A stretch of DNA of 64,000 nt from an uncultured Clostridia bacterium (GTDB lineage: Bacteria; Bacillota; Clostridia; TANB77; CAG-508): positions 7,470-71,469 of the forward strand of contig CAQPBJ010000008.1 in NCBI GenBank assembly GCA_948852945.1, given 5' to 3'. The notes beneath the pieces are model-generated. The model was not told the DNA's origin. It was given only the letters and a program-made list of their open reading frames with translations, and did no database searches. Shown piece after piece: positions 39,349 through 41,766 of the stretch (position 1 is its first letter; each line of letters begins with the position of its first letter). The position numbers were made by a program, and so were the translations under genes.

Positions 39349-39392
39349 TTTATCTCCTATTTATATTTTTCCTGTCATCAGGCTATAAAAAC

Positions 39393-39498
39393 AAACAAGT
39401 ATTGCTAGGCACAAAGATAATTAATATTACGAGGCGTACTCTTGTACGTCGCAGTAATTTAATTATCTTTGTAACAACGCAAGACGCCGTTTATTTTT
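39393..39498 (-). repeat. 106-nt hairpin repeat, copy 1 (3' of ligA)
   Basis: 98 of 106 positions match 41661-41766. The long stem is caaagataattaa.attac / gtaatttaattatctttg. Confidence 0.8.
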
Positions 39499-41503
39499 AT
39501 AGCGCTATCATAGTATCAAACTGAAGTTCCGACAAAACTGTAACCCCCAACTGATTAGCCTTATCAAGTTTCGAACCCGCATCTTCTCCAGCTAAAACAT
39601 AAGTAGTCTTTTTAGAAACTGAACCTGAAACTTTACCTCCAAATTTTTCAATAATAGCAACTGCCTCATCTCTAGTATATTTATCTAAAGCACCTGTCAA
39701 AACAAAGATCATTCCCTCAAATCTATTATCAGTATTTTCATCAGTTTCTGCACTCATATTAACATTCGCATCTTTTAATTTTTTAATCAAATCTTTCGTC
39801 TGTTCTTGATTAAAAAATTCATATATAGCTTTAGCTGTAATTTCTCCAGTATCATCAACTTGAATTAAATCTTCATAAGATGCTTGTACTAACTCATCCA
39901 TTGTTTTAAATCTTTTTGCTAAACTTTTAGCTCCTTTTACACCCACATGGCGAATTCCCAAAGCATTAATTAATCTATATAAGTCATTTTTCTTACTTTC
40001 GTTAATTGCATCTATTAAATTTTGAGCAAATTTTGTACCATCTTTTTTCAATGTTTTAACATCTTCCAAAGTCAAACTATATAAATCTGGAATATTTTTA
40101 ATTAAATTTCTGTTCAAAAATTCTTCAATGATAGAATATCCAAGCCCTTTGATATTCATAGCTTCTCTTGAAGCAAAATGCCAAATACTTCTAAATAATT
40201 TAGCTTGACACTCAATTCCAATACATCTAGTTACTGCTTCTCCTTCTTCTCTAACAGCATCTGCACCACAAACTGGACATTTGCTTGGCATTTTAAATTC
40301 TTTTTGTGTGCCATCTCTTTTAGATTTTAGCACATCTACAACTTCTGGAATTACATCTCCAGCTTTTTGAATTATAACAGTATCACCAATCATTAAATCT
40401 TTTTCTTTTATAAAATCTTCATTATGAAGTGTTGTTTTAGAAATTGTTGAACCTGCTACTTTAACAGGCTCTAATATAGCCATTGGCGTAATTGCACCTG
40501 TTCTACCTACTTGGCAAATAATATCTTTAAGTATAGTTTCTTTTTGCTCTGGTGGATATTTATATGCAATAGCCCATTTAGGAGTTTTATAATTTGTTCC
40601 TATTATTTCTCTTAAAGTTAAATCATCAACTTTTATAACAGCTCCATCAATTCCAAAAGATAAACTCTCTCTATCATCTCCAATTTTATTAATTGCATCA
40701 ATTGCTTCATCAATAGTATCGCAAAAAATTTTAACTGGATTTACATTAAAACCTAATTTTTCTAAATACACTAATGAATCATAATGTGATTTAAAATTTA
40801 TATCAGTTGATTTTTGAACATTAAAAACATAAATATCTAAAGGTCTTTTAGCAGTTTCTTTACTATCTAATTGACGTAGTGAACCTGCAGCAGCATTTCT
40901 AGCATTAGCAAATAAAGGCTCTTCTAAAATTTCTCTTTCTTCATTCATTTTTTCAAAGCCTTCTTTAGATATAAACACTTCTCCACGAACTATAATATCT
41001 ACATCTTCTGTTAATTTTTGAGGAATAGTTTTTACAGTTTTTAAATTGTCAGTTATATCTTCTCCTACTAACCCATTTCCTCTAGTAGCTCCCCTAACGA
41101 AAATACCTTTTTTATATTCCAAACTAACAGACAAACCATCAATTTTAGTTTCGACAACATATTTTAAAGGAATATTTTCTTCTACAGATACTTTTCTAAC
41201 ACGCTCATCAAAAGCCCTTAAATCTTCAAAATTAAAAATATCTAACAAACTTTGAAGAGGAACTTCATGTTCAACCTTTTCAAATCCTTCTTTTACTGTA
41301 CCACCAACATGTTGAGTAAGTGATTCTGAACTTATAAATTCTGGATATTTATTTTCTAAATTACGAAGTTCTAACATTAACATATCATATTCAAAATCAC
41401 TAATTTCTGGATCATCGTCATCATAATATCTTTTAGCATGATATGCAGTTATCTCCCTCAATTCTTTAATTCTCTCACCAGCCTGTTTTTTTGTCATTTT
41501 CAT
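39497..41503 (-). CDS. ligA: NAD-dependent DNA ligase
   Basis: KIDGLS adenylation motif, a Cys4 zinc finger, HhH repeats and a C-terminal BRCT region. Length 668 aa. Confidence 0.95.
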
Positions 41504-41660
41504 CTGTATCTCCCAATTAACATTTCATAATAATTTTTAAAATTTATTTTAATCTAATTAATCTTAGCACTTTATAAAAGTAAAAAGAAAAAACTAACAC
41601 AAAATTAAAAGAAGTAAATTAACTTTTCTTAACTTACTTTCTCTATCAAAAAAGGAAAAG

Positions 41661-41766
41661 AAACAAGTATTGCTAGGCGCAAAGATAATTAATATTACGA
41701 GGTGTACAATTGTACTCCGCAGTAATTTAATTATCTTTGCAACAACGCAAGACGCAGTTTATTTTT
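41661..41766 (-). repeat. 106-nt hairpin repeat, copy 2 (3' of pgsA)
   Basis: See copy 1. The pgsA stop codon (41759-41761) lies inside the repeat. Confidence 0.8.

Follow-up and report, generated by a model that had tools for sequence, protein, structure and literature searches.

The ligA locus of an uncultured Clostridia bacterium carries two copies of a hairpin-forming repeat that belongs to a previously uncatalogued family. We analyzed a 64,000-nucleotide (nt) stretch of its genome (hereafter the window; C8:7470-71469 of a 1.64-Mb mouse-gut assembly with 27.7% G+C and 74% completeness), in which one copy overlaps the 3′ end of ligA and the other that of a neighboring pgsA-like gene. Further copies are dispersed through the same genome and its relatives. 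We consider it probable that the element represents a new family of small noncoding palindromic intergenic repeats, in the class that holds ERIC, bcr1, REP/REPIN, and Correia elements, that is rarely mobile and is cotranscribed with the operons in which it lies.

Direct comparison of 39393-39498 (copy 1) and 41661-41766 (copy 2) bears out the original prediction that these are 106-nt direct repeats with 8 differences (copy 1/copy 2: 39411 A/G, 39435 C/T, 39440-41 TC/AA, 39448-49 GT/TC, 39472 T/C, and 39488 C/A), including one compensatory pair, 39411 with 39472, which is A-T in copy 1 and G-C in copy 2. With a repeat finder, the match grows to 111 nt (39388-39498 and 41656-41766; 92% identity), and each 106-nt repeat forms the core of a single rod-like hairpin of ∼124 nt with ∼33% G+C, at 39381-39504 for copy 1 (C8:46850-46973; covariance-model match of 136.1 bits, E = 3e-42) and 41649-41772 for copy 2 (C8:49118-49241; 133.4 bits, E = 3e-41). 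The long hairpin predicted for each copy is strongly supported by folding: the 124 nt have energies of −47.9 (copy 1) and −42.0 (copy 2) kcal/mol, whereas dinucleotide-shuffled sequences average −20 and −18 (z = −8.8 and −7.7), with 0 of 200 reaching the native value, and the complementary strands fold about equally well (z = −8.5 and −7.1). The additional copy-specific pairing that had been noticed in the flanks also exists; in copy 1, the outer arms at 39382-39396 and 39489-39503 pair at 14 of 15 positions. We describe the element in the orientation of the window plus strand (el+), on which copy 1 has loop motif TTGCTAGGC at 39402-39410, apical hairpin GGCGTAC-TCTT-GTACGTC at 39433-39450, and loop motif TAACAACGCAAGACG at 39472-39486, and copy 2 has the corresponding features at 41670-41678 (TTGCTAGGC), 41701-41718, and 41740-41754 (CAACAACGCAAGACG).

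Copy 1 is accompanied by a tail (39354-39380 of the plus strand, which reads CCTGATGACAGGAAAAATATAAATAGGAG in gene direction, on the minus strand) that belongs to a segment of ∼144 nt missing in close relatives, with an empty site in locus L038. Its motif GTCATCAGG (el+ orientation) also adjoins about 15 other copies in a listing of flanks. The subfamily found in the window comprises the ∼124-nt element plus a 15- to 40-nt tail starting with YTGATGAC, and in this subfamily the tail travels with the hairpin. In the tail of the copy between the MBL gene and hisS (G000:C19:4640-4682), a perfect 12-nt tandem duplication (ATGACATATATA twice) adjoins the YTGATGAC motif. A hammerhead or other small ribozyme, brought to mind by CUGAUGA in the tail, was rejected, as no stem II or GAAA comes next and Rfam gives no match at E ≤ 10; C/D-box or K-turn pairing of the tail was rejected as well, the partner CUGA being missing.

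Both repeats lie at the 3′ ends of minus-strand genes with the stop codons inside repeat sequence, as had been described. The NAD-dependent DNA ligase gene ligA (39497-41503, minus strand; Pfam DNA_ligase_aden, OB, HHH_2, and BRCT) ends in …TMIAL with a TAA stop at 39497-39499, and the second in-frame stop anticipated for it is a TAA that lies 6 nt beyond the first. The element supplies the last two codons (AL) and the TAA stop of ligA; in L038 the gene ends in …TMIGE* instead. The pgsA-like CDP-alcohol phosphatidyltransferase gene (41759-42367, minus strand; Pfam CDP-OH_P_transf) ends in …GTKEK with a TAA stop at 41759-41761, and here the last five codons (GTKEK) and the stop derive from the element. 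The proposed comparison with relatives that lack the repeat thus uncovered both different C termini, in the pgsA-like gene as in ligA, and empty sites. Because the arm has stops in all three frames, insertion into the last codons of a gene only swaps a short C terminus, as happened in these two genes. On its other side, copy 1 adjoins a 78-amino-acid open reading frame (ORF; 39112-39348, minus strand) that has no Pfam family and is conserved at that place in relatives. There the ligA stop overlaps the ribosome-binding site of this ORF, a tight coupling (actatgatAGGAGAATAAAATGG in the closest relative); in the window copy 1 is wedged between the two genes, which are now ∼150 nt apart. The repeats do bracket ligA, but no special meaning attaches to this arrangement, since both copies occupy ordinary gene-to-gene gaps like the others.

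Within the genome, BLAST identified seven near-identical copies (92 to 99%) and about six diverged ones. Alignment of 13 copies revealed the constant motifs TTGCTAGGC, GAGGCGTAC-N4-GTACGTCGCAG, and TAACAACGCAAGAYG between stems whose sequence changes while their pairing is kept, and a covariance model (R1) built from this alignment found 21 full copies and one fragment. All copies in this genome occupy short gaps between genes, and their neighbors are ordinary housekeeping genes, such as relA, hisS, sufS, sufU, mnmA, infB-rbfA, rpsO-pnp, rodA, and that of an [FeFe] hydrogenase. R1 matches 15 of 21 other genomes of the same genus (1 to 39 matches each) and 125 of 301 genomes of the order, in 25 of its 43 genera; beyond the order, it matches only 2 of a class-wide sample of 400. 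With ∼21 copies here and hundreds in relatives, the family is not confined to one strain. The ligA loci most similar to that of the window belong to “Clostridia bacterium” metagenome-assembled genomes (MAGs) of uncultured gut organisms, among them Candidatus Scatovivens and genomes like Clostridium sp. CAG:452. The public runs that contain window DNA are mostly mouse-gut metagenomes, and in several public runs the organism is abundant.

The family proved to be unclassified, as had been suspected. Rfam 15 at its gathering threshold identifies only RNase P and two tRNAs in the whole window, and at E ≤ 10 it returns only chance matches to microRNA precursors in 39300-41850 (at most 24.6 bits, against thresholds of 59 to 130). 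A full-text literature search for the motif strings gave no match. The covariance model does not match the three-copy element that also occurs in the window, which agrees with the earlier view that the two are unrelated. Neither plasmid nor phage sequences gave an element match, and among 2.9 million viral contigs a scan for the motif turned up two chance matches, neither of which the covariance model accepted; a phage or plasmid origin was rejected on these grounds. The repeat thus matches no family described in these sources, and it has both further copies and conservation outside this strain.

Covariation across 96 distinct sequences from many genomes defines the architecture of the element. 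Standard pairs fill 89.9% of cells, compared to 68.6% after shuffling and 35 to 46% when partners are slid by 1 to 3 columns; 41 of 44 base pairs have compensatory changes on both sides; and the covariation score is 0.512, compared to 0.160 for shuffles (0 of 500 as high). The element is an imperfect rod of ∼124 nt with an ordered set of arms, helices, and loops. Outermost is an A-run/T-run arm whose sequence varies from copy to copy with its pairing kept, followed by a short helix, inside which lies a conserved asymmetric internal loop (5′ UA-G-GC opposite 3′ AA-C-AAC). The middle of the rod consists of an AT-rich helix of ∼20 bp and free sequence and then a GA-rich internal loop, and the rod is capped by a 7-bp apical helix, GGCGUAC/GUACGUC, with a conserved G·U wobble pair and a variable 4-nt loop. 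The two asymmetric internal loops (TTGCWAGGC / TAACRMNGCAAGA) and the apical GTAC-N4-GTAC helix are constant. In 100 of 111 copies the plus strand (el+) forms the more stable fold of the two strands, with a mean advantage of 8.1 kcal/mol. G·U pairs number 189 and A·C pairs 99, with 76 of the G·U pairs contributed by the one conserved wobble; no general bias exists without that pair, and we therefore rejected these counts as a means of choosing the strand. Coding of small peptides by plus-strand ORFs of 40 and 46 amino acids was also rejected, as it is incompatible with freely covarying stems.

Comparison with related genomes shows how copies arise. In 80 orthologous ligA loci (protein identities of up to 90%), the element is present on neither side of ligA, and both window copies are therefore recent, lineage-specific gains. 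Relative to the closest relative, the ligA 3′ end of the window contains ∼144 inserted nt (hairpin plus tail CCTGATGACAGGAAAAATATAAAT), and copy 2 is missing between the pgsA-like gene and ligA in relatives. In DNA run X1, a coresident strain of ∼91% identity skips 150 nt, from 39353 to 39504, with TCTCCT in place at the empty junction. The same sample yields two strains across window positions 40166-41330 (contigs at 0 and ∼9% differences), of which only the window type has copy 1. Empty sites were thus observed in L038, in L198, and in the second strain of run X1. Similarly, a metagenome contig of the same species has both copies that flank the MBL gene, a relative of ∼90% identity has neither, and more distant relatives have only the relA-side copy, from another subfamily. 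The window subfamily numbers seven copies at 92 to 99% identity in this genome but only one in G004, the closest genome, at the sufU-mnmA site that both share. This indicates a burst in the window's lineage, of which both window copies are part. Together, these comparisons show spread by rare copy-and-paste, in which the hairpin lands in the few bases that separate a stop codon (or terminator) from the next ribosome-binding site. Four filled-versus-empty comparisons (ligA-78-amino-acid ORF, MBL-hisS, relA-MBL, and sufS-sufU) revealed no consistent target duplication, at most an ambiguous AG/ATAG at one site. Neither arm is present at empty sites, and we therefore rejected both derivation of the arms from the target site and insertion into the loops of existing terminators.

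Once inserted, a copy is inherited vertically at its site, and its orthologs persist across species with covarying stems. The old copies at rodA, relA-MBL, ruvA-rarA, rpsJ-rplC, and sufU-mnmA each have a version of their own, 95 to 100% identical between close species and 52 to 75% identical between distant ones, always with pairing kept. One copy shared by G000 and G004 is identical at 121 of 124 positions, two of the three changes forming a compensatory pair, next to noncoding spacer that cannot be aligned. The copy at the rodA site is 95.1% identical, compared to 90.8% for the adjacent rodA coding sequence. In G004, a remnant of a second copy (CCGTCATCAGGGTGAAAATTATTG…) lies beside the intact one upstream of the rodA copy (L157, ∼1100-1200), which suggests past tandem copies that have since decayed.

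Relatives carry head-to-tail arrays of 3 to 5 units with a period of 123 to 166 nt. Internal units of these arrays have no matching 3′ arm. Unequal crossing-over would leave this pattern, and we therefore attribute the arrays to it. The element has also entered rRNA operons. In the complete genome G310, each of two operons has three sense copies, one after 16S, one after the spacer tRNA, and one 3 nt before 23S (L284, 1144-1907), and in G450, from another order, one copy lies just before 23S in all six operons (L282, 2085-2205). These rRNA-operon copies end 2 to 4 nt before the mature 23S 5′ end, and the spacer versions of the two orders share a signature, GTAGTGC … GCAATACGAAGT, that was not seen in dispersed copies. 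An ancestral rRNA-spacer structure was rejected as the source of the family: the short spacers of same-genus G010 and G014 are 400 nt without an element, and G310 has the same blocks plus three inserted copies. We likewise rejected a boxA (Nus-factor) antiterminator, brought to mind by UUUAACAA-like loop sequence and by the existence of rRNA-spacer copies, as the G450 spacer has a canonical TGTTCTTTGAAAA box elsewhere and most copies are antisense.

Orientation relative to genes is biased. In this genome 14 copies are antisense and 6 are sense to codirectional neighbors, and in relatives the numbers are 53 and 14. Conservation of the loop motifs does not differ between antisense copies (n = 52) and sense copies (n = 20) and is therefore not explained by selection on host operon RNA. 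With ∼75% of copies antisense to neighbors that are functionally unrelated, the element differs from a structured cis-regulatory RNA (riboswitch or leader), which would keep one orientation and one position upstream of a defined set of genes. Strict coupling of orientation to replication was rejected: in G310, 16 of 20 copies are oriented with the replichore, but those in rRNA spacers break the pattern, and the trend is confounded with gene direction.

The element does not look like an efficient terminator, and we find it very unlikely that the family consists of duplicates, spread around the genome, of an intrinsic and possibly bidirectional terminator or attenuator. Such a function would be orientation independent, and it would account for the 5′ A-run and 3′ T-run that flank the hairpin in nearly all copies (AAAAAG…ATTTTT), providing a T-run 3′ of the rod in both orientations, and for the usual start of the element 0 to 20 nt after a stop codon. 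However, the helix that adjoins the T-run is weak (AAAC/GTTT and then an internal loop), conserved loop sequences are unnecessary for termination, and a terminator scan flags the terminator of rnpB and none of the elements. Copies also lie inside obligatorily cotranscribed units (rRNA spacers, rpsJ-rplC, dnaK-dnaJ, and rpsO-pnp), in the first three of which termination would be harmful. In metatranscriptomes, one contig (41462-41878) runs through copy 2 and its two flanks, and the two sides of copy 1 have similar depth; we took these runs to be true RNA based on rnpB, which is ∼10-fold above its neighbors. Several copies are directly 3′ of a separate canonical or T-box terminator; under strict criteria, a terminator was detected immediately 5′ of the element in only 5 of 108 cases, although visual inspection places about a dozen copies after T-box or ordinary terminators. 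Among the T-box cases in several relatives (L281, 1380-1700, in G466; flanks of L153, L164, and L192), the element is directly 3′ of the leader terminator (GGGTGGTACCGCG motif), between the leader and an aminoacyl-tRNA synthetase gene, where it would be transcribed only upon read-through. The class A RNase P RNA gene itself (rnpB; 38716-39073, minus strand; 275 bits) has a near-consensus promoter, TTGACA-17-TAAAAT, upstream (39108-39080) and a canonical terminator downstream (38712-38683). Equally hard to credit is a plus-strand transcript from a mobile promoter or from a small RNA gene of its own, which in most copies would be antisense to the 3′ end of the neighboring gene. The antisense placement of the conserved strand in most copies and the T-run 3′ of the hairpin fit this idea, as does the ribosome-binding site 1 to 5 nt downstream of sense copies, and TTGCTA followed 17 nt on by TATTAC in the window copies resembles a weak −35/−10 pair. 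Yet this pair agrees with a promoter at only 8 of 12 positions and does not pass a scan, its spacing is not kept in other subfamilies, the flank listing contains no conserved upstream promoter, and RNA abundance shows no enrichment beyond the copy-number expectation (∼5-fold over flanks in RNA, compared to ∼15-fold in DNA).

Several points weigh against reading the element as a family of rarely mobile intergenic repeats. Orthologous copies are conserved far beyond neighboring noncoding DNA, which is unexpected for a purely selfish element, so that either host-level function or gene conversion must act. No mobilizing enzyme was found for the element, and no insertion sequence is visible in this MAG, although MAGs often lose them. 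The element has no target-site duplication, unlike classical miniature inverted-repeat transposable elements (MITEs). The RNA evidence for cotranscription consists of assembled contigs that carry no strand information; any cleavage, stabilization, or other effect of the element on expression is putative; and the G·U and A·C counts give no general strand signal, so that the selected form may be either strand, as RNA or single-stranded DNA. A less probable explanation is a host-functional structured element, recognized by a specific protein on one strand (the window plus strand, as RNA or single-stranded DNA) and mobile only incidentally, for example, a portable processing or regulatory module for mRNA operons and pre-rRNA. 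The loop sequences and one G·U wobble are conserved order-wide, the plus strand is the more stable in most copies, and site-specific orthologs have long been kept with pair-preserving changes, evolving more slowly than flanking noncoding and even coding DNA; moreover, the positions occupied are classic for RNA processing, namely next to the mature ends of 16S, tRNA, and 23S, along with rpsO-pnp, infB-rbfA, and rpsJ-rplC. On the other hand, about three-quarters of copies are antisense, which puts the conserved strand outside the operon RNA, and yet the motifs are equal in both classes. The distribution is patchy as well, the element being missing from 6 of 21 same-genus genomes and 58% of the order, and copy number ranges from 1 to ∼40, with tandem arrays and no consistently associated gene.

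Neither the Y1 transposase nor retron reverse transcriptase fits as a partner that moves the repeat. The Y1 (HUH) transposase family PF01797 is missing from at least nine element-rich genomes, G000, G002-4, G006, G007, G017, G018, and G020 (6 to 39 copies each), and present in element-free G001, G012, and G013; mobilization by IS200/RAYT was rejected because the Y1 transposase does not track the element. Neither half-elements of the repeat nor an insertion sequence were found in this genome, although at 74% completeness such sequences may have been missed. For reverse transcriptases the phyletic trend is weak (present in 12 of 16 genomes that carry the element, compared to 2 of 6 that lack it), and none was found in the window's genome. 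In G017, G020, G018, G006, and G002, retron-type reverse transcriptases of ∼340 amino acids adjoin Rfam RT-14 RNA (L291-L295), and the element model does not match these retron loci (all above E = 0.08 and below 15 bits). A retron noncoding RNA (msr/msd) or another reverse-transcriptase link was therefore rejected, the retrons carrying their own RT-14 RNA with no element beside it.

For the intergenic repeat family that we favor, we infer that the most likely role is in the processing or stability of operon transcripts, based on anatomy, on the positions occupied (rpsO-pnp, infB-rbfA, and rRNA spacers), and on analogy. The element would be transcribed as part of operon RNA or pre-rRNA, in which its imperfect double-stranded rod of ∼50 bp could act as a processing or stability determinant, either as an RNase III-type target or as a barrier to 3′ exonucleases. 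RNA hairpins of Correia elements can be processed by RNase III. We consider it more likely that the loop motifs serve recognition, by whatever copies or maintains the DNA or by a factor that reads one strand regardless of context, than that they are signals in host mRNA. More speculatively, and with considerable doubt on our part, the element may be more than selfish DNA, namely a structure-specific module read on one strand by a factor conserved in the clade, either a host processing factor or a new, transposase-independent (non-Y1, non-DDE) hairpin-copying mechanism. In the first case, the rod would serve the host factor as a portable signal for processing, both in operon RNAs and in pre-rRNA; in the second, the copying mechanism would propagate hairpins whose head is constant and whose arms are free but paired.

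The family is a well-supported structured nucleic acid (44 pairs, 41 of them covarying, in hundreds of copies) of a large gut lineage that is wholly uncultured, and neither Rfam nor repeat catalogues contain it. It also has practical consequences for genome reconstruction and annotation. The element breaks MAG assemblies, with many copies at contig ends, and it inflates the lengths of intergenic regions and rRNA spacers. By rewriting gene 3′ ends and shifting stops, it causes the C termini of ligA, the pgsA-like gene, and others to be mispredicted unless it is recognized. More broadly, it offers a clean case in which to ask how a palindromic repeat can spread with no recognizable transposase and why individual copies are conserved for long periods, and the same question applies to ERIC, bcr1, and many REP families.

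Among known repeats, the element resembles classical MITEs in being short (∼124 nt) and noncoding, with ∼21 copies and empty sites in relatives, but it lacks their fixed terminal inverted repeats, its outer arms differing even between near-identical copies (GCTATA, GTTGAA, GTTAAG, GATTCG, and others). The classical bacterial MITEs are Correia/NEMIS in Neisseria and RUP in pneumococci (PMC3184786). Like them, the element is of similar length, is cotranscribed with its neighbors, and differs in presence between strains; fixed terminal inverted repeats, a TA duplication, and a related insertion sequence, all of which they possess, were not found for it. An integron attC site was rejected, as the arms GTTRRR…YYYAAC run in the order opposite to RYYYAAC…GTTRRRY and the neighbors are housekeeping genes; integron integrase was not searched for. 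REP sequences are G+C-rich units of 20 to 40 nt with a GTAG or CGTC tag, paired in REPINs and accompanied by a RAYT (Y1) gene (PMC3116915, PMC3733652). The element shares with them the formation of hairpins in extragenic, single or clustered repeats with an orientation bias, and its conserved imperfections could likewise be read by an enzyme acting on single-stranded DNA. In contrast to REP/REPIN, it is an AT-rich rod of 124 nt in which CGTC occurs only inside the apical helix, and the Y1 family is missing from most carrier genomes.

The bcr1 repeats of the Bacillus cereus group are ∼155 bp long, with 5-bp flanking direct repeats and a two-hairpin, cruciform-like fold (PMC3184786). Like bcr1, the element is a transcribed intergenic repeat of Firmicutes that has compensatory changes keeping an RNA-type fold, a distribution that differs between related strains, and no known transposase; unlike bcr1, it is a single rod with conserved asymmetric loops and no duplication. 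ERIC elements, or IRUs, of the Enterobacteriaceae are imperfect palindromes of ∼127 bp, and ERIC-type elements have terminal inverted repeats and a TA target duplication (PMC3184786). The element agrees with ERIC in its size, its single long imperfect hairpin, and its location in transcribed gene-to-gene gaps in both orientations, as well as in its orthologous sites in related species, copy number that varies by genome, and pair-preserving substitutions. It differs in that it has no sequence relation to ERIC, inhabits a different host phylum, lacks a duplication, and has outer arms that vary between copies, head-to-tail arrays, and rRNA-spacer sites. Together, the absence of target duplications, the free but paired arms, the conserved asymmetric loops, the arrays, and the positions in rRNA spacers set this family apart from ERIC, bcr1, and REP-like repeats.

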